Shown here one piece after another: positions 1 through 39,917 of a stretch of DNA of 64,000 nucleotides (its first letter is position 1; every line of letters starts with the position of its first letter). The stretch comes from an uncultured Mediterranea sp. (GTDB taxonomy: Bacteria; Bacteroidota; Bacteroidia; Bacteroidales; Bacteroidaceae), in assembly GCA_945831575.1 (NCBI GenBank), contig CAMACX010000006.1, positions 3,135 through 67,134 on the forward strand, in the 5' to 3' direction. Under the pieces are notes generated by a model. It saw nothing but the letters and a program-made list of their open reading frames with translations. It was not told where the DNA came from and did not search any database. Position numbers and translations under genes: made by a program.

Positions 1-188
1 GCCCTTTCAAGCCGGGATTATCAGACACGAACTCAAATGATTACCGATGCAAAAAAACACTTTTTCGATGATTCAGACCAATAAAACCCACACTTTTTCT
101 ATGATTCACCCTCCAGCAGAGGCAAATTCATACCCTCGTATTCACATAGATTAAGCCAGGACCCCTTGGTAAACTCAGAGAAAAGTAG

Positions 189-196
189 TAACTTTG
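189..196 (+). promoter_or_regulatory. Bacteroidota -7 box TAacTTTG upstream of the SauUSI-like gene
   Basis: Exact TAnnTTTG match 28 nt before the ATG at 225. Confidence 0.45.
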
Positions 197-224
197 CTGA
201 AAGAAATAATGTAATCAAACAACC

Positions 225-3200
225 ATGAAACTTCAAGAAGGATCATACGAGAACCTTATCACACAACAATTGCAACAGGAGATTGAGCAAGCCAATATAA
301 ACGGACTCGTTTGTAAGAAAGACTCTATAGACACTGCTGAATCACCCTCGATGCTAGCAGGACATATTAACAGACTTATATGTAACAGGCTCTCTGATGA
401 GGAACTTTCAGCAGAAGAACGTGCTTCATTTGTCAACCGTCTCATCGAATTTCTGGGAGAAAACGACGAGGAGAAGATTGCTGATGAAAATCAGATATTG
501 GCTGCTGTAATATCTAGACAAGAGGAAGCCAACCTCATAGCTACCCGCAACAAGATAGTGAGACCCTTGACTGGATTTAGGACAAGCAGCTTGTTTACTG
601 GTGGACAGAGTGATATTCCCCTAAGCGCCGAAATAAGCAGAGACATCCAAACGGCAGACCGCATCTTTTTAATCGTATCCTTCCTCAGGCTGTCAGGCAT
701 CAATCTGATTTACGATGACTTGAAACGTTTCTGCAACCACCACGAGCACAAGCTATGCATCATTACCACGACCTACTGTGGAGTGACCGAACCAAAAGCA
801 CTAGAACGTCTTGCCCAATTACCCAATACAGAAATCCGAATCTCTTACAATACAGATATCGAAAGGCTTCATGCCAAAGCATATATCTTTGAAAGAAACT
901 CAGGATTCAGCACTGCCTACATCGGCTCTTCTAACCTATCTAAATCAGCACAAACAGATGGACTGGAATGGAACATCAGAGTGACCAACGTTGAAAATCC
1001 ACACATCATCAAAACCGCAATGGCAACTTTCGATCTCTACTGGAATAGCAACAACTTTGAGGATTTTAGACTCGGTGGTATCGATAAGTTTTACAAGGAA
1101 ATTGCAAGAGAAAAAAGACCTAAAGAGTGTAGAACTGAACTATGGAGCCGCTACACCATATTGCCTCATCAAAAAGAGATACTTGACAAGTTGACTCTTC
1201 AGCGAGAAAACGGCATCTACCGAAACCTCATCGTGGCAGCCACAGGTACAGGTAAGACCGTAATCTCCGCCTTCGACTACAAAACATTCTGCAACACACA
1301 TCCGCAATCCAACCATATCCTGTTTGTAGCCCATCGACAGGAAATACTGAGTCAAGCACTTTTTACTTATCGCAGCGTACTGATGGACAGTAATTTTGGA
1401 GAGCTATGGGTGGGTAATCAGCGACCTTCAAGAGGCATAAGCCAACTATTTGTCTCGGTGCAAACTTTTAATTCTCGCTTTGATGACATATTCAGCACCC
1501 TTTCGTCCGACTATTACCATTATATTGTCATCGACGAATGCCATCATAGTGTAGCCGATAGTTACCGTAAAATACTGTCCCACTTCAAGCCCGAACTTCT
1601 GATTGGACTGACAGCCACACCTGAGCGGATGGACGGTGAAAGTCTGTTGCCTGACTTTGACCAGACTATCAGCGCTGAAATCCGACTCACCGCTGCGCTC
1701 AATGCGCAACTACTCACCCCCTTCCAATACCTCTGCATTAGCGACACGACAGACCTAAGAGACGAAGAGTTAATGCAAGGTAATAAATATATTGCAACAA
1801 AGCTCACTGATAGATTATGCAATAGCGAGCGAGTAGCACTCATCATTGATAGGCTGACGTATTACCTGCCTGATGAGACCAAGTGTAAAGCATTAGGATT
1901 CTGCTCAACTAAAGAGCACGCCCGATACATGGCTGAGCAATTTCGGTCTTATGGCTTTCGAGCAGATTATCTTACATCCGACAGAAGCGAAGATCGAGAT
2001 ATGCTGAACAAGAAGTTGGCCAGAGGAGAAATCAACTACCTGTTTGTGGTTGACATCTTCAACGAAGGAGTCGATATACCCGAGGTAGATACCGTTCTCT
2101 TCCTACGCCCTACCGAATCGCTCACCATCTTCCTACAACAATTAGGACGCGGTTTGCGACTTGCGCCAGGCAAAGAGCTGCTCACCGTATTTGACTTTGT
2201 GGCCCAACTCAATCACAAATACGACTTCACCAGCCGCTTTCGCAGCCTCATGGTGCGACAAGACAAGAGTGTCATCGACCAAGTGAAACAGGGCTTCACC
2301 CTCCTACCTCAAGGATGCTCCATTCATATGGAAGAAAAAGCACAGCAGTATGTACTCGAAAATATTCAGTCGGCCATCTACAATCGCCGACGTCTGGTGC
2401 AAGAGCTCAGAACGTACGATCACCAACCCACACTCAAAGAGTTCATCGCAAACAATGGACAGGACATTCGACTGATCTACAAGACCGGCTGCTGGACCAG
2501 CTTGAAACGAGAAGCAGGCCTATGTCACTATAACGATGATGAGTGCACTAAAAGATACGAAAAAGGGCTCTCCAACCTCCTGCATACCAACAGCGCAACC
2601 TACCTCCACTTCATTCAGGATACGCTCAACCATCTCCAACCTCAATACATCAGCAAGCAAAACGACACATACACCACCATGCTCTACTACACGCTCTATA
2701 TCGATAAATTAGAAAAGACACCATTCCACTCCCGAGAAGAAGCCATAGCAACGCTCCGTAACTATCCACTCTTTATTTCCGAAATTAAAGAATTGGTAGA
2801 TTATCAGCTGTCTCAGATTGCAATCAAAACCTTCACCATTGGCCAAGGCCTGCCCGACACGCTCGAACAGTACGGTTGCTATACCCGAAAAGAAGTGTTC
2901 ACCATCTTTGGACGTCAGACGGTCAATAAACGCATGCAAGGTATCTCAGCCGGTGTATTCAAAATCGATGAACTGAATACAGAACTTCTATTCGTTACAC
3001 TGAATAAATCAGACAAAGACTACTCTCCTTCTACCCAATACGATGACTATGTAGTGAGCGAATTTCAGTTTCATTGGCAGTCACAAAAATCCGATTCGCA
3101 CGCAAACAAAGGACGTCGTTTTGCGGAACAGGCCAAGAATAAGAAGAAGTTTCTCCTATTCGTTAGAGAATACAAACAAGATGGGTTTGGCAACACCTGT

Positions 3201-3314
3201 CCCTTCTACTGTTTCGGACTAGTGGATTACATCTCTTCTACCGGTGACAAGCCTATGAGTATCAATTGGAGAATGCAACAGCGTATCCTTCCACAGTTCC
3301 TCAAAATCGTCTAA
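225..3314 (+). CDS. SauUSI-like three-domain protein (PLD-family nuclease, SF2 DEAH-type helicase, DUF3427-like C-terminal domain). Putative type IV modification-dependent restriction endonuclease.
   Basis: 1029-aa ORF. HKD-like motif HAKAYIFE...GSSNLS. Helicase motifs AATGTGKT (I), DECHH (II), LTATPER (III) and QQLGRGLR (VI). About 300 aa follow the helicase. Visibly lower GC than the following genes. Confidence 0.8.
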   Translation: MKLQEGSYENLITQQLQQEIEQANINGLVCKKDSIDTAESPSMLAGHINRLICNRLSDEELSAEERASFVNRLIEFLGENDEEKIADENQILAAVISRQEEANLIATRNKIVRPLTGFRTSSLFTGGQSDIPLSAEISRDIQTADRIFLIVSFLRLSGINLIYDDLKRFCNHHEHKLCIITTTYCGVTEPKALERLAQLPNTEIRISYNTDIERLHAKAYIFERNSGFSTAYIGSSNLSKSAQTDGLEWNIRVTNVENPHIIKTAMATFDLYWNSNNFEDFRLGGIDKFYKEIAREKRPKECRTELWSRYTILPHQKEILDKLTLQRENGIYRNLIVAATGTGKTVISAFDYKTFCNTHPQSNHILFVAHRQEILSQALFTYRSVLMDSNFGELWVGNQRPSRGISQLFVSVQTFNSRFDDIFSTLSSDYYHYIVIDECHHSVADSYRKILSHFKPELLIGLTATPERMDGESLLPDFDQTISAEIRLTAALNAQLLTPFQYLCISDTTDLRDEELMQGNKYIATKLTDRLCNSERVALIIDRLTYYLPDETKCKALGFCSTKEHARYMAEQFRSYGFRADYLTSDRSEDRDMLNKKLARGEINYLFVVDIFNEGVDIPEVDTVLFLRPTESLTIFLQQLGRGLRLAPGKELLTVFDFVAQLNHKYDFTSRFRSLMVRQDKSVIDQVKQGFTLLPQGCSIHMEEKAQQYVLENIQSAIYNRRRLVQELRTYDHQPTLKEFIANNGQDIRLIYKTGCWTSLKREAGLCHYNDDECTKRYEKGLSNLLHTNSATYLHFIQDTLNHLQPQYISKQNDTYTTMLYYTLYIDKLEKTPFHSREEAIATLRNYPLFISEIKELVDYQLSQIAIKTFTIGQGLPDTLEQYGCYTRKEVFTIFGRQTVNKRMQGISAGVFKIDELNTELLFVTLNKSDKDYSPSTQYDDYVVSEFQFHWQSQKSDSHANKGRRFAEQAKNKKKFLLFVREYKQDGFGNTCPFYCFGLVDYISSTGDKPMSINWRMQQRILPQFLKIV

Positions 3315-3344
3315 TCTATAACTACAGAAGCTGTTAATTAACAA

Positions 3345-3788
3345 TCAGAACAGCCGCAGCCCGCGGCACGCCATCTGGCTCCAGGCGGAGCGACCATCGT
3401 GGCGGATCTGCAGCACGCCCCACCAGATGGCGATGCCCACCAGCGAGGAGACGGACTGCACGGGATGGAGGTCGAGCATCGTGGTGTTGACTGCCAAGGC
3501 AACCAGCGAGGAGACGATGAAGAGGTAGAAGCCGCTCTTGTTCCACCGCATGAGCAGCAGCGCAGCATAGACGTTGCAGGCACCGAGCAGGGCCAGCAGC
3601 GCAACAGCCGCCACGGGCAACTGGGGGTCGGCATCGACAAGCGATACCAGGTACTGCAACGTGACACCGGCATTGATGAGCAACACCAACCAAAGCCAGA
3701 AGGTGACACAGCCGTGGCGCTGCCGTAACTCATCGTGCATTGTACAATTCGCTTCAGCATTCATATCAGTATGCATATCAGTATGCAT
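3345..3788 (-). CDS. Small integral membrane protein, function unknown (about 4 TM segments)
   Basis: Of three overlapping ORFs here, only this frame gives hydrophobic helices (FWLWLVLLINAGV, AAVALLALLGACNVYAALLL, FYLFIVSSLVALAV, LVGIAIWWGVL). The start is uncertain: the MHTDMHTD prefix comes from a 12-bp duplication, and an internal Met at 3740 is possible. Confidence 0.6.
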   Translation of the reverse strand: MHTDMHTDMNAEANCTMHDELRQRHGCVTFWLWLVLLINAGVTLQYLVSLVDADPQLPVAAVALLALLGACNVYAALLLMRWNKSGFYLFIVSSLVALAVNTTMLDLHPVQSVSSLVGIAIWWGVLQIRHDGRSAWSQMACRGLRLF

Positions 3789-3832
3789 ATTCGGTATTCA
3801 TATCACTATTCAAGTCACCCATGCGCAGCACC

Positions 3833-5347
3833 TCAGAGTTTGACCTTCTTCTTGACTGACCGGGACTCGTTGTGGAGACGGTCGAGGGCGGTGACGACGT
3901 AGGTGTACTTGGTCTTGCCGTCGCGGTAAGGCAGCTTGTAGAAGGTGTTGGGCGTAAGGGCCACGAGGTGGGTGGCATCGTTGATATCGACCTGCTCGCC
4001 CTCCTCGAAGCGGTAGATGGCGTAGTGGACGGCACGGTCCATCTCCGTGCGGTACTTGGGAGCGGTCCAGAAGAGCACGTAGCCATCCTCCATCCAGAGG
4101 GGTTTCACCTTGCTCACCTTGCCGGGGGCCTTGTGGTCCATGAAGTAATAGACGGGCGGAATGGCGGGATAGCGGTGGTACTCGGCACGCAGGACCTCGG
4201 CGTAATTGCCGGCATTCTCCACCACGGCGGAGGCGGGCCACTGGCAACTGCCTTCGATGGTCTGGTAAGCACGCTGCAGCTTCATCTTGGCAGCAATCTG
4301 ACTCTGCTCAGGATGCTGCGGGTCGGCATGTTGCACGGTGTTCATCACCGACTGACCGATGTAGAGGGGTCGTCCCTCGGTGTGCTTGGCCCACCAATCC
4401 ACCAGCTCGGCATAGTCGGCTGCGGGATGGCCTATCTGCCAATAGATCTGCGGGATGTTGTAGTCAATCCATCCCTCCCGGGCCCAGAGGAGCACATCGG
4501 CATAGAGGTCATCGTAGTTCTGCAAGCCGTTGGTCTTGCTGCCCAGCGGGTCGCTCTTCTCGTTGCGGTAGATGCCGAAAGGCGACACGCCAAACTTCAC
4601 CCAGGGCTTGACCTCGCGCACGGTCTCGTGTATCTTCTTGATGAGCAGGTTGACGTTGCTGCGGCGCCAGTCGGCCTTGCTGTCGAAGCCACGGCCGTAG
4701 CGGGCAAAGCTGTCCTCATCGGGAAAATCGAGTCCCTTCTGCGGATAGGGATAGAAGTAGTCATCCATGTGGATGGCATCCACGTCGTAGCGGGTCAGGA
4801 TGTCGGTGATGACCATGCAGATGTGACGACGGCTCTCGGGCAGCGCAGGGTCGAAGAAGAGTTGGTTGCCATAGGTCACGAACATCTCGGGATGGAGGTG
4901 GTAGAGGTGGCCGGGAGCCAGCTCATTGGATAGCGAGGTCTTGACGCGGTAGGGATTAATCCAGGCATGAAACTCCATGCAGCGCTTGTGGCACTCCTCG
5001 ATCATGAACTGCATCGGGTCCCACATGGGCTCAGGGGCCTTGCCCTGCTCCCCCGTGAGGAAGCGGCTCCACGGCTCCAGCTGGGAAGCGTAGAGCGCAT
5101 CGGCCTCCGGACGTACCTGGAAGATGATGGCATTGATGCCGGCCCGCTGCAAGGCGTTGAGCTGAGACACCAGGTTCTGCCGCATCGCCTCGGGGGCCAT
5201 GCCCTTAAACTGGCCGTTGACGCACTGGATCCAGGCGGCACGAAATTCGCGTTTGGGATAGCGCTGACTGTTATCCTGAGCCTTCAAGCCACCGCCCAGC
5301 GCCAGACAGAGGCAAGCCCACAACATGATGATTACGGTTCTTCTCAT
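3833..5347 (-). CDS. Secreted glycoside-hydrolase-like family 10 (GHL10/DUF187, YngK-like) protein
   Basis: 504-aa ORF with an N-terminal signal peptide. REFRAAWIQ start of a TIM-barrel-like domain, typical of GHL10 proteins. Confidence 0.7.
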   Translation of the reverse strand: MRRTVIIMLWACLCLALGGGLKAQDNSQRYPKREFRAAWIQCVNGQFKGMAPEAMRQNLVSQLNALQRAGINAIIFQVRPEADALYASQLEPWSRFLTGEQGKAPEPMWDPMQFMIEECHKRCMEFHAWINPYRVKTSLSNELAPGHLYHLHPEMFVTYGNQLFFDPALPESRRHICMVITDILTRYDVDAIHMDDYFYPYPQKGLDFPDEDSFARYGRGFDSKADWRRSNVNLLIKKIHETVREVKPWVKFGVSPFGIYRNEKSDPLGSKTNGLQNYDDLYADVLLWAREGWIDYNIPQIYWQIGHPAADYAELVDWWAKHTEGRPLYIGQSVMNTVQHADPQHPEQSQIAAKMKLQRAYQTIEGSCQWPASAVVENAGNYAEVLRAEYHRYPAIPPVYYFMDHKAPGKVSKVKPLWMEDGYVLFWTAPKYRTEMDRAVHYAIYRFEEGEQVDINDATHLVALTPNTFYKLPYRDGKTKYTYVVTALDRLHNESRSVKKKVKL

Positions 5348-32282: not shown

Positions 32283-32456
32283 GTGAATAAAACATATAAT
32301 ATTTCAAGAACTATGGGAATACCAACAAACCTTGGCTATATTCAATCTAAAGCCAATATCAAAAGACCTAAAAAATCAATACGGAATTTCAGCGGCATAA
32401 AATTTTTCAATGTGGTGATAAGTTCCCGAATGCTTGTTTAGGTCGAAATAAATGAT

Positions 32457-32464
32457 TACCTTTG
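32457..32464 (+). promoter_or_regulatory. -7 box TAccTTTG inside the IS left end, driving the transposase
   Basis: Exact match 23 nt before the ATG at 32488. Confidence 0.45.
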
Positions 32465-32487
32465 CATTCGAATTCAAATTATCACCT

Positions 32488-33540
32488 ATGCTATTAAACC
32501 AATTCCATAAGAGGTTCCCTGATGAGGAAAGCTGTATTTCTTATTTCAAAGATATACGTGAGCAGAGTCTTCCCAAGTGTCCGAAATGTGGGCACGACGT
32601 ATATTCATGGATACCCAAAAAGGAGGCATTTGAGTGCAAGAAATGTCGCCATAGAATACCCCTGACAAAGGATACAGTGATGGAGCATAGTAAACTACCA
32701 TTGCGTACATGGTTTTATACGATGCACCTCATAACATCCATTAAACAGGTTCTCTCCGCAAAAGAGGTTCAATACCAACTTGGAATGGAACAATATCCAC
32801 CAGTCTGGTTGATGATGATGAAGCTTAGGAGTATCATGGGCAAACGAGAAGAAATGTACCTGCTTAACGGCAAGATAGAACTTGACGAGGCATTCTTCCC
32901 CACTCGTGTTGAAGAGACCGAAAAGGGTAAGCCGCTAAGACGTGGAGCAGGAAGCCAAAGGCAGACAAAGGTCCTTGTAATCGTTGAGAGTAAGGAAGTT
33001 GACGAGATTTTGAAGGAGTATCTTGAGAAGGTCCAGATAGACAAAACAGCTGCACTTGAGAAGAAGACTAAGGGCAGGAAAACCAGAAAGACAGTTCGAT
33101 ACATAAAGATGTTTGTTATTGAGAATATGGAGGCATCAACAATTGATCAAGTCTTGGCCAAGTCTGTTGACAAGAACGCCGTAATAGTGACTGACGGTCA
33201 TGCATCACATTCGCACATCAAAGAAAACTTTGCTGGTCACATTCCTGTCGTGGAGTACAATCCAGAAAAAGTGGTAAAGAACAACCTCCCCTGGGTTCAT
33301 ATAGTAATAGGTGAGTGCAGAAATGGCATCGCTGCAATCCACAAAAAGATTGACAGTCGATTCTTACAATTGTACCTGAATGAGTATTGCTGGAAGTTTA
33401 ATCGTCGATTCTTTAGGGACTCATCAGACCCGAAGTATGACCTGTTCGACAGATTGGTGAAGATTGCTGCCATCTATACCTCCGATATTAAGTGGAGGGA
33501 CTATCCCAATGCAGAGAAAGATGACGATGAAGTCCTCTAA
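32488..33540 (+). CDS. IS1595-family (ISXO2-like) DDE transposase with an N-terminal zinc ribbon
   Basis: CPKCGH...CKKCRH zinc-ribbon motif followed by a DDE-type domain. The track start of 32452 precedes the promoter box, so the start is moved to MLLNQF. Confidence 0.8.
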   Translation: MLLNQFHKRFPDEESCISYFKDIREQSLPKCPKCGHDVYSWIPKKEAFECKKCRHRIPLTKDTVMEHSKLPLRTWFYTMHLITSIKQVLSAKEVQYQLGMEQYPPVWLMMMKLRSIMGKREEMYLLNGKIELDEAFFPTRVEETEKGKPLRRGAGSQRQTKVLVIVESKEVDEILKEYLEKVQIDKTAALEKKTKGRKTRKTVRYIKMFVIENMEASTIDQVLAKSVDKNAVIVTDGHASHSHIKENFAGHIPVVEYNPEKVVKNNLPWVHIVIGECRNGIAAIHKKIDSRFLQLYLNEYCWKFNRRFFRDSSDPKYDLFDRLVKIAAIYTSDIKWRDYPNAEKDDDEVL

Positions 33541-33622
33541 ATCGGGGGCGGGAACTTATCACCACATTGAATAAAATTTTGCTTAAAGACATTATTGTAG
33601 CTATAGTCTAATCGCTGAATAG

Positions 33623-33949
33623 CTATGATTCGGGGACGAAGCGCATGCGCACGCCGGCAAACATCTTGCTCGTTACCTTGTCGGGGGAGTCAACGGCCTT
33701 GTTGCCCGGCCCCGTGTAGCCTGCGAGGCGGAAGGAGCCGAGTCCGTCGAGCTTGACGCTGCGTCCGGCGGCGAGGTAGTCGGCCATCACTTCGCCGAGC
33801 ATGGAGAGCACGGCGCGTGCGTCGGCCTCGCTGACGGTGGAGATCTGGGCTAACTTCTTGGCGATGGTCTTGGTACTTACAGGCTTGCCCTGCGTTACGC
33901 TTCTCGGGTACCACTTTCCTTGTGGGTTCTTCGACTTGATGTAGTACAT
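33623..33949 (-). CDS. HU-family (Bacteroidota HU-like) DNA-binding protein
   Basis: 108-aa ORF. IAKKLAQISTVSEADARAVL...VKLDGLGSFRL matches the HU/IHF fold pattern. Confidence 0.7.
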   Translation of the reverse strand: MYYIKSKNPQGKWYPRSVTQGKPVSTKTIAKKLAQISTVSEADARAVLSMLGEVMADYLAAGRSVKLDGLGSFRLAGYTGPGNKAVDSPDKVTSKMFAGVRMRFVPES

Positions 33950-34084
33950 AAGTTGAAATGGTTTTGAGGTTTGTGCATCCGGACGGGTTTCGTATGGCGT
34001 TCGTAATATAGCCGGATGCTTTGTATATTACGAAGCCTTGGTTTGTACAGTACTGTCGTAGGGACGATAATAGTTTGACGGTTG

Positions 34085-34915
34085 TTAACTTTTGGGGTCG
34101 TAGGGGGCTATCTCTGTCGGGATGAGTTCCTTGGCTAAGGCTGCTGCCCGCTCTGCTGCGACCCGCTCGGCTGCGACCCGATCTGCTTCGGCCTGCTGGG
34201 CTGCTGCCCGATCTGCTGCGGCCCTCCGGGCTGCGGCCTGCTCGGTGAGGAGGAGGGCTGACCCGAAGAGGTCTATGCCTGCTGCGCGGCGTATGTAGGT
34301 GCATTCTGAGGCGGAGATGCGCAGGTCCACTCCTCGCACGGCAATCCTGCTCACGGTGGCCGAGGAGATGAGGTGGTCTGGCCAACGGTACTTCGCCTTG
34401 GCCCCGTTCTTCTTGCACTTGTAGAGGTCGCGGCGCACGGTGCGGATGTAGTCGTCGGCGGCCTGCTGCACGGCCTCGCGCAGCGCTGGTGCGGTCCAGA
34501 GGCGCACGCCGGGCAGCAGGTTGGTGGTGAAGGAGGTGCGCACCTTGGCCCCGTTCTCGTAGATGATGTCGCACACGGTGGTGAGGTAGCACACGTCGGT
34601 GCCGGGCACCATCTGCGTGAGTCCCGGGGCGAAGAGCAGGAAGTCGATGCCCCTGTCGAGGTAGAAGCGCACGATCCTGGAGTAGATGCTGAACGGCGGG
34701 TTGTCGATGACCACGCAGCCCTCGGGGTAGTCGTAGCGCTCGTAGTCGCCTCCGGGGTAGAAGGGTCGCACGATGGTGCGCCCCTCCAGGTGCAGCTCGC
34801 TCGCGGCCCACTGGAGCAGGGCCTCATAGACGGGCTGCGGGGTGTAGCAGTCGTCGGTGGTGCGCTTGATGGCGAATTTCTCGATGAATTGTTCGTAGGT
34901 TTCTCCTTTGGCCAT
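34085..34915 (-). CDS. Putative N6-adenine DNA methyltransferase (orphan) with an Ala/Arg-rich pentapeptide-repeat tail
   Basis: 276-aa ORF. DCYTPQPV (motif X-like) and VIDNPPF (motif IV NPPF). The C-terminal seven 15-bp repeats (34151-34255) encode xRAAA units. Confidence 0.6.
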   Translation of the reverse strand: MAKGETYEQFIEKFAIKRTTDDCYTPQPVYEALLQWAASELHLEGRTIVRPFYPGGDYERYDYPEGCVVIDNPPFSIYSRIVRFYLDRGIDFLLFAPGLTQMVPGTDVCYLTTVCDIIYENGAKVRTSFTTNLLPGVRLWTAPALREAVQQAADDYIRTVRRDLYKCKKNGAKAKYRWPDHLISSATVSRIAVRGVDLRISASECTYIRRAAGIDLFGSALLLTEQAAARRAAADRAAAQQAEADRVAAERVAAERAAALAKELIPTEIAPYDPKS

Positions 34916-34935
34916 TTTGGGTAGCGATTAAGGGG

Positions 34936-35256
34936 TTAGTGATTATGGAGTATTTCGGAGCCGTTGTCGGTCCGATGCTCGCTGATGAATCCGGTCAGCT
35001 TCAGGTAGCTTTTGCCTTTGCGCCTGAATGCGAGCTTGAGGAATTCCCAGCATAGCCGTAAGCAGGTGCTTTTGTCGAGGACCTCATTCAGCACGGCCGG
35101 CTTGTCCATGAGGTAGCCGTGGAGCCTGCCCGTATCAATACGATCCGTCCAGATCTCATCTGGAGGAACGTCACGGTTTAATTCAGAGCAGAGTGAGAGC
35201 ATTAAGGTCTGCACCTTCCATGCCTTAATTTTTTCTTCGAGTTCTTTTTTATCCAT
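34936..35256 (-). CDS. Hypothetical 106-aa protein; candidate immunity partner of the upstream MuF-fusion protein
   Basis: AT-rich ORF immediately downstream of, and co-oriented with, the MuF gene. No motif recognised. Confidence 0.5.
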   Translation of the reverse strand: MDKKELEEKIKAWKVQTLMLSLCSELNRDVPPDEIWTDRIDTGRLHGYLMDKPAVLNEVLDKSTCLRLCWEFLKLAFRRKGKSYLKLTGFISEHRTDNGSEILHNH

Positions 35257-35283
35257 TTTGTTTGGTATTTAAATTAATGTTTG

Positions 35284-35291
35284 TACCTTTG
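35284..35291 (+). promoter_or_regulatory. Orphan -7 box TAccTTTG pointing antisense into the 3' end of the MuF gene
   Basis: Exact TAnnTTTG match on the plus strand, with no plus-strand ORF downstream. Confidence 0.35.
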
Positions 35292-35299
35292 CGGCATGT

Positions 35300-35358
35300 A
35301 AAGCACTGAGGGAATGGCTACCTGACAAAAGAGATCTAACTGCCGCCCTTGGTGCTTT
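35300..35358 (+). ncRNA. Candidate antisense small RNA 5' stem-loop. Alternatively an intercistronic hairpin of the minus-strand operon.
   Basis: 13-bp stem AAAGCACUGAGGG / CCCUUGGUGCUUU (two G-U pairs) with a 33-nt loop. It starts about 9 nt after the promoter box and overlaps the MuF stop codon. Confidence 0.3.
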
Positions 35359-36373
35359 ATCTTATACTGTCTGTGACGGAATACAAATAGTATGTAATTC
35401 TTATCTGTCCGTTTCGGTTTTCCTCCTCCTTCGCTACATTTAAATAAACTGTATTAGAACGCAGCCTTACACTGTAATAGTAGAAATGTGTAATGTTATC
35501 ATTTCTTTCATGCGAAAGCTGAGCATCATCCTCGTAAGATGACCGTTTCAACAAGTCGCCAAGATTTCTTAAATCTTCCTTTTGTAGTACTGCGCTCCTT
35601 CCGTATGTGTCTGAATAGAGGTGCTTATTCCCGTATTTGGTAAATCCCACTTTAATGTAGCCATCCGGAATAGGTTTCTCATGCTTAACCCTGAGCAATG
35701 GAGCCATCTCCTTATCTACGTAGTGCTTCCGCTGTATGGCCGATTGGCTCTTCTCCAGATCACCAGCACACTCCCTAAAGAATCGGCACGCTTCGCAGAG
35801 CTGGGTGTTTGCTATGCCTTCGGAGGCTAGGTTGGCCTTGCCGTCACCTTTGGCGGTGGGGCAGGTGCGGCACTGACGGATGGTGTAGGGGTTGTAGTCG
35901 GGGACGGCCTTCTGCTGCTTGCCTGAGTTGAAGCGGAACATGTCGTACTGACCTATCGCGAGCTGGCCGAGGCGCATGGCTTCGTCATGGTCCGTCGTGG
36001 GGTACTTGGACTTGCGCACCTGCACTACGGAACAGCGGCAGTTCCATCCATTCGGAACATAGTACTCCTCCCAGAAGGGGTCGTCCATGGGGAGGGTGAC
36101 GCCATCGAGGGCGGCGTGCTCGGGACGGACGCGGTCGTCGCCGGCGGTGCGGTACTGGAGGTTGTAGCGGTCGCCGTCCTCTGCGTACAGCTCCCACTTG
36201 GCGGCCATGGAGGCGGAGGCGTGGATGAAGTTGTACTCGGAGCGGAGGTAGTTGGCGTTGTAGGTCTCATCGACCGCACGGACATCGTTCAGAAAGCGTT
36301 CGAACGGTTTTCGGTTGCCGTCCGGGTCAAGCAGCGAGGGGAAGGACTCGTTCAGCTCGTGGAAGGCCTTCAT
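35357..36373 (-). CDS. Phage MuF / SPP1 gp7-family head-morphogenesis domain protein fused to an unrelated AT-rich C-terminal module (candidate toxin domain)
   Basis: MuF core DDRVRPEHAALDG...PNGWNCRCSV. CxxC...CxxC linker (CRTCPT, CEACRF). GC drops sharply below about 35830. Confidence 0.75.
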   Translation of the reverse strand: MKAFHELNESFPSLLDPDGNRKPFERFLNDVRAVDETYNANYLRSEYNFIHASASMAAKWELYAEDGDRYNLQYRTAGDDRVRPEHAALDGVTLPMDDPFWEEYYVPNGWNCRCSVVQVRKSKYPTTDHDEAMRLGQLAIGQYDMFRFNSGKQQKAVPDYNPYTIRQCRTCPTAKGDGKANLASEGIANTQLCEACRFFRECAGDLEKSQSAIQRKHYVDKEMAPLLRVKHEKPIPDGYIKVGFTKYGNKHLYSDTYGRSAVLQKEDLRNLGDLLKRSSYEDDAQLSHERNDNITHFYYYSVRLRSNTVYLNVAKEEENRNGQIRITYYLYSVTDSIR

Positions 36374-36434
36374 GCCGGAGAATAGTCATGCTGGTATCGG
36401 CATTTATCTCAATTTATCTCCCTCACTATCTCCA

Positions 36435-36485
36435 TTTATCTCCTGCCTCATATTATCTCCTGCCTCATGTTATCTCCCGCCTCAT
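36435..36485. repeat. Three 17-bp tandem units WTTATCTCCYGCCTCAT ending on the ATG of the tail-chaperone ORF
   Basis: Units at 36435, 36452 and 36469. Looser TTATCTC copies run from 36402. Confidence 0.85.
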
Positions 36486-36654
36486 GGAGACACTCACCTT
36501 CATGCACTGCTGCCTGGCCAGCGCGTGCAAGGCCGACGGCATACCCTTTGAGATGGATGTGCAGGAGATGGCCGACCAGCTGACCCCCGACGACGTGAAC
36601 GCCTTCGCGGCCTCACTCAGCGGCGGAGAGGCAAAAAAAAGTAGAATTTTCTGA
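36484..36654 (+). CDS. Tail assembly chaperone G-like ORF (probably 5'-truncated)
   Basis: 56-aa ORF ending 13 nt after an A8 run, directly upstream of the T-like ORF and the tape-measure gene. Confidence 0.55.
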   Translation: METLTFMHCCLASACKADGIPFEMDVQEMADQLTPDDVNAFAASLSGGEAKKSRIF

Positions 36655-36985
36655 GAGAGAGGTCGGTGAGACCGGTATTGCCGACCTCGTGGCTGTGTCA
36701 GTGGGGAGCATGGGCTTGAGTCTGGACGACTTCTGCTCCATGACTCCCCACGAATTTTATCTCACCCAGCGCGCCTGGCACCGCACGCACGTGGAGCAGC
36801 CCTGGGAGCAGACGCGCCTGCTGGCCTGCTCCATGCTCCAGCCCTGGAGCAAGAAGAAGCTCCGCCCCGAGGACGTGATGCGCTTCGCCTGGGACGAAAA
36901 GAAGACCGCCAGCGCCCACCCTGCCCACAGAGAGCAGAGCACGCGCCAGCGGTTCGATGAGATCAAGAAAAGGTGCGGGGGCTAG
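36599..36985 (+). CDS. Tail assembly chaperone T-like extension. It has no ATG of its own and is predicted to be expressed as a G-T fusion by a +1 (or -2) shift at the A8 run (36633-36640).
   Basis: Frame +1 relative to G is open from 36599 through the A8 run. MGLSLDDFCSMTPHEFYLTQRAW resembles the conserved gpT/GTA chaperone motif. The track lists the ORF from GTG at 36689. Confidence 0.55.
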   Translation, partial: TPSRPHSAAERQKKVEFSEREVGETGIADLVAVSVGSMGLSLDDFCSMTPHEFYLTQRAWHRTHVEQPWEQTRLLACSMLQPWSKKKLRPEDVMRFAWDEKKTASAHPAHREQSTRQRFDEIKKRCGG

Positions 36986-37116
36986 TCCTTGCGGAATAGG
37001 TAAAACAGAGCACGTATTCCTATCGAAATCCCCGCATATAGGCCATACGCAAGCAACGCCAAGTTGCAGAAAGCTATGAAGCAGTAAAACAATTTATCCC
37101 AGAAAAACCTATCCAT
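36982..37116 (-). CDS. 44-aa hydrophobic small protein (MDRFFWDKLFYCFIAFCNLALLAYGLYAGISIGIRALFYLFRKD), antisense between the tail genes
   Basis: Translated by hand and below the ORF-track cutoff. One or two predicted TM segments. It has its own TAtaTTTG box 25 nt upstream. Confidence 0.4.
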   Translation of the reverse strand: MDRFFWDKLFYCFIAFCNLALLAYGLYAGISIGIRALFYLFRKD

Positions 37117-37141
37117 ACCCGTTACGATTATTAACACGCTG

Positions 37142-37149
37142 CAAATATA
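37142..37149 (-). promoter_or_regulatory. -7 box TAtaTTTG (minus strand) upstream of the 44-aa ORF
   Basis: The plus strand reads CAAATATA. Confidence 0.4.
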
Positions 37150-37166
37150 AACATTATTTTTTTAAT

Positions 37167-38516
37167 ATGGCAAACAATACCGTAAATTTTACGATAAATA
37201 TCAAGGATAATGCTACTGGTAAGCTTAAAGAGATTACTGCATCAACCAACGATCTCGGCAAGATGGTCAGAAGCGTGACCGAAGAGGTCCGTGCAAACCA
37301 GCGAACCATTGTAGATTGGGCACAGGCTGCGCAGGCAGCCGACATGCTCAGCCAATCCATCAGTCAGATTTACGATGCAGCAAAAGATGTGACGCAGGCC
37401 TATCAGGTGCAGCTCGTGGCAGAGACGCAACTCGTCACGGTAATGCGGCAGCGCATGAAGGCCACCGACGAGGAAGTGCAGAGCATCAAGGAACTTTGTA
37501 GCGCACAGCAGGAGCTAGGAGTGATAGGCGACGAGGTGCAGCTGAGCGGCGCGCAGCAGATGGCCACCTTCCTCAACGAGAAGAAGAGCCTCGACACCCT
37601 GATTCCGGCCATGAACAACCTGCTGGCTCAGCAGAACGGACTCAACTCCACCAACCAGGACGCAGTAAGTATAGGGAACCTGATGGGTAAGGCCATGCAG
37701 GGACAGACCGAGGTGCTGCAACGCGTGGGAATATCCTTTAGCGAAGCGCAGAAACAGGTACTGAAGTTTGGCACGGAGAGCGAACGGGCCGCCGTCCTCG
37801 CACAAGTTATCACAGAGAATGTGGGTAACATGAACGCCGAGCTGGCAAAGACCGATGCAGGAAAGCAGAAGCAGCTGGAGAACGCACTAGGAGACATCAA
37901 AGAAGAGCTAGGCGCTATAGTACAGCCTATGATGACGGTCATAACTAAGACTTATCAGCTGTTTACAGTAGGTACATACCTGGCTAAGACGGTTTCAACG
38001 GTAAAGTCTCTCCGTCTAGCTATCGGACCGTTACTTCCTACATTCGTATCATGGAGAGTAGTATCGGTTAGGTTGAGCGCTACCATGACCGTCTTACGTG
38101 CCAAACTACGCGGCGTCGAAGTAGGTGCTACGACAGCCCGCATGGCGATAAGCAGACTGATGGTAGCCTCCGGCGTAGGCGTTGCCATAGCGGTCCTTTC
38201 ATACGCTATCTATAAGTTGACAGGAAGCGCATCCTCCGCATCGGACGAGCTCGACAACCTCACCACCTCGGCCCGCCAGCTCCGCGAGGCCTCGGACGCT
38301 TACACCACGGCATCATCCGATGCCAAGGCGGCCATCGACATGGAGCTGGCCAGCCTGAAGCAGCTCATCGACAGCCACGCTGACGACAAGCAGGCGGTCA
38401 GCGAGCTCAACAGCAAGTACGGCGAGGCGTTCGGCACCTACGAGACCGCCTCCGAGTGGTACGACGTGCTGACGAAGAAGAGCGAGACCTACTGCCGTGG
38501 AAATAATTCGCCGTAA
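37167..38516 (+). CDS. Phage tail tape-measure protein, likely 3'-truncated
   Basis: 449-aa ORF, coiled-coil rich with central TM segments, following a G/GT pair. It ends abruptly (ETYCRGNNSP) where composition and context change. Confidence 0.7.
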   Translation: MANNTVNFTINIKDNATGKLKEITASTNDLGKMVRSVTEEVRANQRTIVDWAQAAQAADMLSQSISQIYDAAKDVTQAYQVQLVAETQLVTVMRQRMKATDEEVQSIKELCSAQQELGVIGDEVQLSGAQQMATFLNEKKSLDTLIPAMNNLLAQQNGLNSTNQDAVSIGNLMGKAMQGQTEVLQRVGISFSEAQKQVLKFGTESERAAVLAQVITENVGNMNAELAKTDAGKQKQLENALGDIKEELGAIVQPMMTVITKTYQLFTVGTYLAKTVSTVKSLRLAIGPLLPTFVSWRVVSVRLSATMTVLRAKLRGVEVGATTARMAISRLMVASGVGVAIAVLSYAIYKLTGSASSASDELDNLTTSARQLREASDAYTTASSDAKAAIDMELASLKQLIDSHADDKQAVSELNSKYGEAFGTYETASEWYDVLTKKSETYCRGNNSP

Positions 38517-38909: not shown

Positions 38910-39917
38910 ATGGGAGTAAGCAACAAATACATCCGTTTTGACTGGGCCATGAAGCGACTACTTCGCCACAAGGCCAATTTTGCCGTGCTGGAGGGCTTGA
39001 TGACCACCCTGCTCGGCGAGCAGATTACCATCGTCAAGCTGCTGGAGAGCGAGAGCAACCAGGAGAGCGAGTTTGACAAGTACAACCGGGTCGATCTGCT
39101 GGCTGAGGACAGCAGGGGACGGCTCATCCTCTTTGAGATACAGAACAACAACGAGTACGCCTACTTCCAGCGGATGCTGTTCGGCACCTCCAAGCTGGTC
39201 ACGGAGTACATCAACCGTGGCGAGGGGTACGAGAAGGTGCGCAAGGTCTATAGCATCAACATCGTCTATTTCGCCCTAGGCAGCGGCAGCGACTACGTCT
39301 ATCATGGCAAGACGGAGTTTCGCGGGCTGCACAACAACGAGCTGCTCAACCTCACCCCCTTCCAGCAGCAGACCTTCCAGGTAGAGACCGTCAGCCAGCT
39401 CTATCCTGAGTACATCATCCTGCGTGTCAACGACTTCGATAAATGGTCGGTCGTACCCCTTGACCAATGGATCTACTTCCTCAACACAGGTGAGATACCC
39501 GACGAGGCCAATGCCCCCGGCCTGCCCGAGGCACGCGAACGCCTGAAGCTGGACCGCCTGACCAAGGCCGAACTGGATGCCTACTACCGCCATCTGGACA
39601 ACGTGGTCATCCTGCGCGACAACATCAACACCGAGCGTGCTGAAGGACGCGCGGAAGGACGCGCGGAAGGACTGGAAGAAGGACGTGCTGAAGGACGTGC
39701 TGAAGGACGCGCTGAAGGACGTGCTGAAGGACGCGCTGAAGGACTGGAAGAGGGAATGGCAAAAGGACGTGCTGAAGGGTTGGAGGAAGGTCTGGAAAAA
39801 GGAGTAGCACAAGCGAAAAGAGCTACTGCCCAGAATCTGAAAAACCTTGGCTTATCCCTAGAACTGATAGCTCAAGCCACCGGACTGAGCATAGAAGAAA
39901 TAGCAAAACTGCACTAA
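38910..39917 (+). CDS. Rpn/YhgA-like PD-(D/E)XK nuclease family protein (putative transposase/recombination-promoting nuclease) with a C-terminal AEGR repeat tract
   Basis: 335-aa ORF. N-terminus KYIRFDWAMKRLL...RVDLLAED...LFEIQN is typical of the family. Fourteen 12-bp in-frame repeats at 39639-39806. Confidence 0.8.
   Translation: MGVSNKYIRFDWAMKRLLRHKANFAVLEGLMTTLLGEQITIVKLLESESNQESEFDKYNRVDLLAEDSRGRLILFEIQNNNEYAYFQRMLFGTSKLVTEYINRGEGYEKVRKVYSINIVYFALGSGSDYVYHGKTEFRGLHNNELLNLTPFQQQTFQVETVSQLYPEYIILRVNDFDKWSVVPLDQWIYFLNTGEIPDEANAPGLPEARERLKLDRLTKAELDAYYRHLDNVVILRDNINTERAEGRAEGRAEGLEEGRAEGRAEGRAEGRAEGRAEGLEEGMAKGRAEGLEEGLEKGVAQAKRATAQNLKNLGLSLELIAQATGLSIEEIAKLH

Follow-up and report, generated by a model that had tools for sequence, protein, structure and literature searches.

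The question raised by this locus is whether a phage head protein with a foreign-looking C-terminus and the small gene behind it form a toxin and its immunity partner. The locus lies in a 64-kb stretch (hereafter the window, meaning all 64,000 nucleotides (nt) analysed) of contig CAMACX010000006.1 from an uncultured Mediterranea sp. It consists of a MuF-family open reading frame (ORF) of 338 amino acids (aa) and a 106-aa ORF (orf106), both of which were found as the original prediction described them (Table 1). That prediction, made from the sequence alone, took the pair as a MuF polymorphic toxin-immunity cassette. The analysis points elsewhere. The window probably holds a decayed fragment of a Mu-like prophage, with a truncated MuF gene whose LPD3-like tail has been exchanged and an orf106 unrelated to it, and the tail position would be a slot for cargo in intact phages. 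Swappable tails and an exchange at the domain boundary were borne out, while a recognised toxin tail and an immunity role for orf106 were not.

The N-terminal part of the 338-aa protein is a MuF trunk. The core motifs noticed earlier, DDRVRPEHAALDG and PNGWNCRCSV, are present in the translation, and both Phage_Mu_F (PF04233; 59.2 bits, E 8.4e-16, cut-off 29.6) and TIGR01641 (SPP1 gp7; 51.8 bits, cut-off 39.65) match above their curated cut-offs. The CxxC...CxxC linker behind the core is real as well. Its cysteines C168, C171, C193, C196 and C202 are invariant in the family alignment, and the linkers of relatives give weak matches to zn-ribbon_14. The history of the gene changes beyond this linker. 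Nucleotide identity to locus L005, the nearest intact relative, is 0.92-1.00 from 36382 down to 35729, save three 60-nt windows at 0.77-0.87, falls to 0.50-0.65 from 35728 to 35353 and recovers past the MuF stop codon (intergenic 0.78 and above). At the protein level, identity to the homologue P0002 is 90% in the trunk, 94% in the linker and 42% in the tail; the best tail match in the homologue set has 65% aa identity, and the nearest DNA for the window tail comes from loci of 47-48% GC. The core of the tail was thus exchanged by recombination, and the breakpoint is the domain boundary.

Tail replacement also accounts for the composition break within the MuF gene, which coincides with the recombination breakpoint and can be read, as proposed earlier, as the trace of an exchange. 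GC content is 0.60-0.65 at 35800-36300 against 0.37-0.42 at 35200-35700, and GC at third codon positions (GC3) drops from 0.83 in codons 1-212 to 0.44 in the last 126 codons (z ~7.5), so that the shift is no mere amino-acid effect. The abrupt AT-rich shift is therefore real, but the break lies nearer 35729-35790 than the 35830 first given. It was also said to run through the next gene; this holds for the first 50 codons of orf106 (GC 0.46, GC3 0.54) but not for the remainder (GC 0.54, GC3 0.75). Since both alleles are of LPD3 type, the exchange is an allelic replacement within one tail class, with the incoming allele from a lower-GC lineage, and not the arrival of a new fold.

Assignment of the tail was made by profile, structure and fold searches. 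In Pfam, the window tail matches LPD3 and DUF7823 alone, both below cut-off; the LPD3 match (PF18798) reaches 20.3 bits and E 6.5e-4 under a cut-off of 27. The same family is matched at E<=0.01 by 26 of 32 diverse tails of the window's class (class T0, described below), with a best E of 1.6e-9. An AlphaFold2 (AF2) model of residues 200-338 has a mean predicted local distance difference test score (pLDDT) of 89.7 and is composed of two helices, a beta-hairpin, two further helices and a four-stranded sheet. Among BFVD entries this model resembles one annotated as a large polyvalent protein-associated domain protein, with E 1.6e-5 and a template modelling (TM) score of 0.61; a PolyVal ADP-ribosyltransferase is matched at E 6.7e-4, and an entry named 'Large polyvalent protein-associated domain 3' at E 2.2e-3. 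A 'MuF C-terminal domain' protein matches only weakly (E 0.12). Foldseek against the PDB gave nothing significant (best E 0.03, TM <=0.32). At the top of the PDB matches, at TM 0.2-0.3, stood NTF2-like proteins and designed ones; no Barnase, RelE, colicin or EndoU structure was among the hits, and PDB sequence searches with the tail were empty. A BECR/PBECR tail, suggested by a histidine on a helix and a serine on the last strand, was rejected as the PBECR families of Pfam were unmatched even at E<=10. LPD3 is one of 40 function-unknown domains defined in polyvalent proteins (Iyer et al. 2017, PMC5512222). On sequence and model, the window tail is best described as an LPD3-like domain of unknown function, not a recognised toxin, in place of the Barnase/EndoU/RelE-like nuclease that had been suggested. 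Structure prediction, proposed as a check on both proteins, thus gave a confident tail model without a toxin fold, but for orf106 a model with pLDDT of only 49.6.

How far tails vary among relatives depends on how the relatives are ranked. With the full-length protein as query, thousands of matches spanned 99% of the protein and the window's type of tail was shared by 76 of 80 IMG/VR loci, from which it was first concluded that the tail is conserved family-wide. Such a ranking favours same-tail proteins, so relatives were re-ranked by trunk only, using an alignment with aa 1-200 as first sequence and one genome per species, and the conclusion was reversed. (A trunk-only search variant gave only proteins of <=350 aa, apparent fragments or short forms useless for tail classes.) The 80 re-ranked loci share 65-80% trunk identity and are all labelled Bacteroidales except for three (Lachnospiraceae, Gemmiger and Oscillibacter bins). 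A tail could be read past 'PDYNPYT' in 77 of them; 19 match a hidden Markov model of the window tail type and 58 carry unrelated tails of 175-240 aa that start directly past the zinc ribbon. The earlier picture of a conserved MuF trunk with swapped C-terminal modules therefore holds. In all 77 tails divergence begins past 'PDYNPYTIxxCxxC...CxxC', the linker being the final trunk element common to all tail classes.

Clustering of all collected tails gave ten clusters, T0 to T9, of which T9 is a single truncated copy of T4 type, and by sequence the family has at least nine tail classes. Profile-profile comparison groups T1, T3, T4, T5, T6 and T7 loosely (E 9e-6 to 7e-4 over 49-123 columns), with T0, T2 and T8 unrelated to this group. 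CdiA_C (PF18451) was found in 20 of 44 distinct tails of T1 and T3-T7 (best E 2.3e-7) and no other Pfam family was matched there. Several tails of the CdiA_C group show D...(D/E)xK motifs by eye; on these motifs, the CdiA_C-like tails are putative PD-(D/E)xK nucleases. Long N-terminal extensions of polyvalent style were also seen in some members (P0006, L053 5209-7011, L071 3832-7017 and L072 5461-7035). The L071 protein is a portal-MuF-LPD3 fusion of 1061 aa, and P0006 has an N-terminal zincin-like (HExxH) region, 'HELAHMIDYY', with a weak Peptidase_M90 match.

The variation of the tails is not accompanied by a matching variation of the downstream genes, so that the proposed check for linked cassettes among MuF homologues came out positive for the C-termini but negative for the ORFs behind them. 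Among 126 dereplicated loci surveyed over ~2.2 kb downstream, no ORF cluster tracked any tail class. The best-linked cluster (d20) was present in 3 of 10 T3 loci plus one T0 locus, a 77-aa protein with two transmembrane segments occurs downstream of MuF with most tail classes, and the same neighbours can stand beside different tails (L083-85 share theirs with L007 and L037). A co-oriented ORF of <=150 aa within 150 nt was present at ~20-40% of loci (28/67 for T0; 20-67% for other classes). According to Jamet et al. (2017, PMC5576092), a small ORF lies downstream in 89% of cases for MuF toxins and in 25.5% for short MuF genes that encode no toxin. In this frequency the window family behaves like the short non-toxin MuF genes.

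The window copy itself is incomplete, a point that the original prediction had missed. The phrog_19194 match to the 338-aa protein begins only at profile position 81, full-length relatives have 394-440 aa and are aligned with it from their internal 'GMKTFHEL', and DNA homology to L005 ends at 36382-36384; ~66 N-terminal codons are absent. A complete gene beside a portal gene, the setting of a MuF head protein, is thus not seen in the window: the gene is truncated at 36384 and a portal homologue is absent. Homology to the MuF neighbourhoods of seven relatives is confined to 33548-36385 plus a short piece at 36880-36993, within a phage block of ~5 kb between an IS1595 and a PDDEXK_2 transposase gene. 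The closest relatives are Mu-like Bacteroidales prophages with Portal_Mu followed by MuF, Mu Gam, an AAA_22 ATPase and Phage_tail_S; the ATPase is probably MuB-like and a ~690-aa gene, judged by its position, probably encodes the transposase. Homologues of the portal, Gam and transposase genes of these neighbourhoods were not found anywhere in the 64-kb window, and because of these missing genes the block is read as a fragment, presumably of a decayed Mu-like prophage. Pig-gut metagenome contigs have the same arrangement with 99.98-100% identity to the window, and the truncation junction is repeated in at least three independent contigs of the seven on record, so it is not an artefact of a single assembly. 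With portal, capsid, transposase and its own N-terminus gone, the window MuF gene is most likely inert.

In the scheme that these results support, the MuF protein of Bacteroidales Mu-like phages is modular. Its trunk is made up of a helical N-terminal part, the MuF/gp7 domain and a Cys4 zinc ribbon, and the 125-190 aa downstream are a tail swapped between phages by homologous recombination. In the window, a divergent LPD3 allele, taken from a relative of lower GC, has displaced the tail core (aa 216-338), with one crossover in the conserved tail start and the other in a conserved hairpin starting within the stop codon. SPP1 gp7, Mu gpF and the polyvalent proteins suggest by analogy what such a protein does in intact phages: its trunk would hold it at the portal, within the capsid, and its tail would be cargo that enters the newly infected cell along with the DNA. 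Cargo of this kind, expressed from late genes, would be made only in cells bound to lyse, so that an immunity gene would not be needed.

Some points weigh against this account. The tail has invariant polar residues (H217, N249, H251, D255, R259, N312, S332 and D335) that resemble an active site, and a toxic enzyme is therefore possible. For this family, packaging and injection are predicted from the analogous systems just named. The ORF calling in the surveyed flanks was mechanical and noisy, and immunity genes could lie elsewhere in the phage than in the ~2.2 kb surveyed. Lastly, the ORF is intact amid the decay around it, identical or near-identical copies occur in several pig-gut samples, and the ratio of nonsynonymous to synonymous substitution rates (dN/dS) of the trunk is 0.24-0.30, which fits residual function.

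These last observations agree with an unlikely but not negligible alternative, in which the truncated MuF-LPD3 gene is retained by the host or by a satellite-like element, for superinfection interference or as a reservoir of tail alleles. A comparable fragment, L088 (metagenome-assembled genome Bacteroides sp. PUUB16_bin.045, 1-3864, compared with window 34655-36993), bears on this alternative from both sides. As in the window, the 3' end of the 98-aa ORF (orf98) adjoins a truncated MuF gene, here with a CdiA_C-like T3 tail. L088 also has duplicated hairpin/promoter units, a promoter with the first 9 codons of orf106, two starts of the methyltransferase (MTase)-like gene and an orphan tail fragment of T8 type, joined in frame with an MTase N-terminus. 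The locus has the look of a scrapyard of recombination and recalls the orphan C-terminal (CT) modules in contact-dependent inhibition (CDI) and Rhs loci, and with its different tail and duplicated units it indicates that the slot is recombinationally active even in fragments. However, the two genes are truncated at different points, near codon 58 in L088 but near codon 66 in the window. The synonymous divergence (dS) of the window trunk is 0.21 to the intact L005 against 0.41 to the fragment-like L088, so the low dN/dS can be explained by evolution in functional phages followed by gene conversion into the fragment. PADLOC gave no defence hits.

A still less probable alternative is the cassette of the original prediction, a working pair with the LPD3-like tail as toxin (an RNase, for instance) and orf106 as its immunity protein, both acquired as one AT-rich unit. 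It has real precedents, as MuF toxins beside immunity genes exist (PMC11699363, PMC5576092), the tails of the family are polymorphic with many of them CdiA_C-like, certain His, Asp, Arg and Ser residues are invariant in LPD3, and orf106 is co-oriented with the MuF ORF, 100 nt 3' of it and partly AT-rich. The path of the exchange is against it. The exchanged segment halts at the stop codon, and the hairpin and leader between the two genes are again 78-87% identical to L005, which shows that the tail and orf106 were not acquired together. Compared with L005, orf106 is part of an insertion bordered by an 8-bp direct repeat (CAAAATGG) between the promoter-like leader and the ATG of the MTase-like gene, so that it occupies the exact ATG position which that gene holds in L005.

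The character of orf106 points in the same direction. The earlier statement that it has no recognisable motif was confirmed, with nothing found in Pfam, PHROG, NCBIfam or PADLOC. Among 5.8 billion protein clusters it matches only its own, and an exhaustive phmmer search of 1.84 billion representatives gave one partial match (P0122; E 3e-5, aa 46-93) on a 667-bp contig (L086), seemingly another degraded relative, where the N-terminal half of the ORF resembles the antisense of another gene. All four substitutions between orf106 and a 96%-identical variant are nonsynonymous (4/4), and orf106 was found beside none of 86 other LPD3-tail loci (0/86). An immunity role is not supported for orf106, an orphan insertion outside the exchanged segment; it would be an unrelated orphan cassette inserted between the promoter-like sequence and the MTase-like gene. 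Neither a Pfam toxin or immunity family nor a PDB fold was matched, and the trunk has lost its N-terminus, with no portal present that could deliver it.

The weakest alternative, that no exchange took place and the AT-rich end only reflects a domain rich in Lys, Asn, Tyr and Ile, is hardly credible: the tails of relatives are also somewhat lower in GC than their trunks (GC3 trunk/tail 0.85/0.61 in L005 and 0.59/0.49 in L004), but GC3, which is without amino-acid constraint, falls by 0.39 in the window against 0.10-0.24 in relatives, and the loss of L005 and P0002 identity at the same point, with recovery after the stop codon, already contradicts it.

The segment between the MuF gene and orf106 contains two elements. 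A conserved ~57-nt hairpin begins within the MuF stop codon, and by blastn it lies directly 3' of the MuF gene in 36 of 86 T0 loci (after the stop in L004, L005, L008, L011, L018, L037, L040, L044 and others) and in none of the other classes at that place. In L088 and L140 it lies farther downstream, at distances of 816 nt and 223 nt respectively. Strong conservation is seen in the loop of the hairpin ('TTAGGACTCAAATGCCAG'). In an alignment of 28 sequences, compensatory changes occur in 14 of 15 pairs, none of 500 shuffles matched the observed values, and 80% of the cells are paired against 37-48% in slid controls; the minimum free energy (MFE) fold of the single sequence agrees. Rfam gave no match in 33500-37200 at E<=1, and a consensus terminator scan did not call the hairpin. 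Possible roles are those of a terminator-like structure or a regulatory RNA, or of a right-hand homology arm in the exchange of tails. The leader that follows is 87% identical to L005, where it stands immediately before the MTase-like gene, and it is a putative promoter.

At the family level, a wider picture is put forward tentatively, as a possibility we would rate below an even chance. The MuF gene would be a capsid-anchored effector slot in which one trunk serves at least nine tail classes without linked immunity; most of these would be CdiA-CT-like nucleases and roughly one quarter LPD3. A covarying structured element of ~57 nt, not described before, would mark the 3' end of LPD3 alleles as regulatory RNA, terminator or recombination landmark, LPD3 would be an injected enzyme, and fragments would act as reservoirs of alleles. 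This combination of at least nine classes, no linked immunity and a T0-specific structured element may be new, as far as a partial check of the literature goes. The window gene itself is most likely a fossil and carries little weight, while the family offers a testable picture of gut Bacteroidales phages shuffling capsid-delivered cargo. Its crossover points are defined, with the zinc ribbon and tail start on one side and the stop-codon hairpin on the other, and it supplies uncharacterised tails (LPD3, T2 and T8) as well as a candidate new RNA motif in the hairpin. Nuclease-like tails apparently without immunity genes bear on the question whether MuF 'toxins' are interbacterial weapons or early-infection effectors.

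Among known systems, the MuF polymorphic toxins (PMC5576092; Apk2; Bxa) share the N-terminal MuF domain and the variable C-terminal extensions on near-homologous trunks. In the intact relatives the gene lies in the prophage head module, and sister tails match the toxin family CdiA_C. MuF toxins with adjacent immunity genes are described from Firmicutes (PMC5576092) and from Bacteroides (Bxa, PMC11699363), so their occurrence in Bacteroidales is already known. Unlike these toxins, the LPD3 tail of the window is no recognised toxin, the window copy is truncated and its phage lost, and the small ORFs of the family are rarer than the 89% reported and none co-varies with the tails. In the scheme of Jamet et al. 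the window protein would be a 'MuF with a C-terminal extension of unknown domain'.

The polyvalent proteins (PMC5512222), where a MuF anchor holds effector domains that are thought to enter the cell with the DNA, are close in other respects, and the window protein would act in the manner of their MuF- or portal-anchored effectors. The window tail is LPD3-like by sequence and predicted structure, the family contains MuF-LPD3 and portal-MuF (L071) fusions and a HExxH region (P0006), and modules are shuffled in a mosaic way with no dedicated immunity gene. LPD3 is fused here to an anchor of virion-packaged type, MuF in the window and portal-MuF in L071, in a phage context that is present in relatives and lost in the window. 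Unlike the giant polyvalent proteins of 2-15 domains, the window protein is minimal with three modules, and the LPD3 score of its own tail lies under the Pfam cut-off. With Mu gpF (gp30) and SPP1 gp7 the family shares the PF04233/TIGR01641 core and, in intact relatives, the position after a Mu-type portal, and the context of the relatives is Mu-like (Gam and a MuB-like ATPase). Mu gpF bears an inactive PBECR tail (PMC5512222), whereas the window tail is LPD3-like with no detectable BECR match; further differences from Mu gpF and SPP1 gp7 are the extra zinc ribbon and the loss of the N-terminal codons in the window copy. As in CdiA-CT/Rhs toxin exchange, tails are swapped past a conserved junction, a displaced orphan tail is present in L088 and sister tails match CdiA_C. 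Unlike there, the tails travel without cognate immunity genes, and a phage capsid would take the place of the secretion system as vehicle.

Table 1. Coordinates of the MuF locus and of its neighbours in the window.
Feature	Position	Strand	Basis or remark
MuF-family minor head protein gene, 5'-truncated	35357..36373	-	338 aa ORF
MuF / SPP1 gp7 core domain, aa 29-116	36026..36289	-	PF04233
4-5-Cys linker, C168xxC171...C193xxC196 + C202, probable zinc ribbon	35768..35872	-	family alignment
Exchanged LPD3-like tail core, aa 216-338, low GC3	35360..35728	-	ancestry unlike that of the trunk
Conserved ~57-nt hairpin, starting within MuF stop codon	35301..35357	-	blastn, covariation, MFE fold
Promoter-like / 5'-leader ('TGCCGCAAAGGTACAAACATTAATTTAAATACCAAACAAA')	35257..35300	-	three copies before slot genes in L088
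Orphan 106-aa ORF (orf106)	34936..35256	-	in 338-bp insertion 34919-35256 vs L005
Phage accessory gene, 276 aa, phrog_21498	34085..34915	-	PHROG match, no Pfam
HU-family DNA-binding protein gene	33623..33949	-	PF18291, TIGR01201; 94% nt identical to L005
MuF truncation junction, then five direct repeats	36385..36477	.	sequence comparison, repeats
Divergent tail-module remnant	36388..38516	+	88-aa ORF, 98-aa phrog_16333 ORF, 449-aa tape-measure-like N-terminal part
IS1595-family transposase gene, flank	32452..33540	+	PF12762, PF12760
PD-(D/E)XK-family (PDDEXK_2) transposase-like gene, other flank	38910..39917	+	PF12784

The region past MuF was found to contain other accessory genes in relatives. 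In L113, L114 and L145 the first ORF past MuF encodes a signal-peptide protein of 150-207 aa, small beta-barrel or outer-membrane-like; its presence beside three tail classes suggests that the post-MuF slot collects morons. In L020 and L024 (~720-2020 nt past MuF), and at ~47 other loci (cluster d0), the 77-aa protein with two transmembrane segments is followed by a reverse transcriptase of ~433 aa. The latter has 'IGLRSSQ' and 'YCDD', is of diversity-generating retroelement (DGR) type by motif and is preceded by an Asn-rich stretch resembling a template repeat (TR). The MuF tail was considered as target of such a DGR and rejected, as a direct repeat resembling a TR and variable repeat pair was not found in 13 kb of L024.

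Among the neighbours in the window, the 276-aa ORF behind orf106 is homologous to a 222-aa ORF of L005 and to fragments in L088. Its motifs 'TTDDCYTP' and 'VVIDNPPFS' ('DNPPF') resemble those of N6-adenine DNA methyltransferases, so it is possibly such an enzyme, and its C-terminus has an Ala/Arg/Glu-rich repeat (AAARRAAADRAAAQQAEADRVAAERVAAERAAA). On the other side, five tandem-like direct repeats of ~17 nt (TATCTCCATTTATCTCC and variants) lie at 36395-36477, just past the truncation junction, and may serve as sites for protein binding or mark where an element ends; some 490 bp of this part (36385-36875) are absent from L088. The divergent tail-module remnant on this side is arranged identically in the pig-gut contigs L001-L003, and its tape-measure-like gene is presumably truncated. 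The 88-aa and 98-aa ORFs of this remnant share a similar stretch of 31 nt (36578-36608 and 36858-36888; 'QLTPDDVNAFA' and 'KLRPEDVMRFA'), a similarity that suggests they are paralogues. The C-terminus of the PDDEXK_2 transposase-like protein carries a long repeat of (A/E)EGRAEGR type (AEGRAEGRAEGLEEGRAEGRAEGRAEGRAEGRAEGLEEG).

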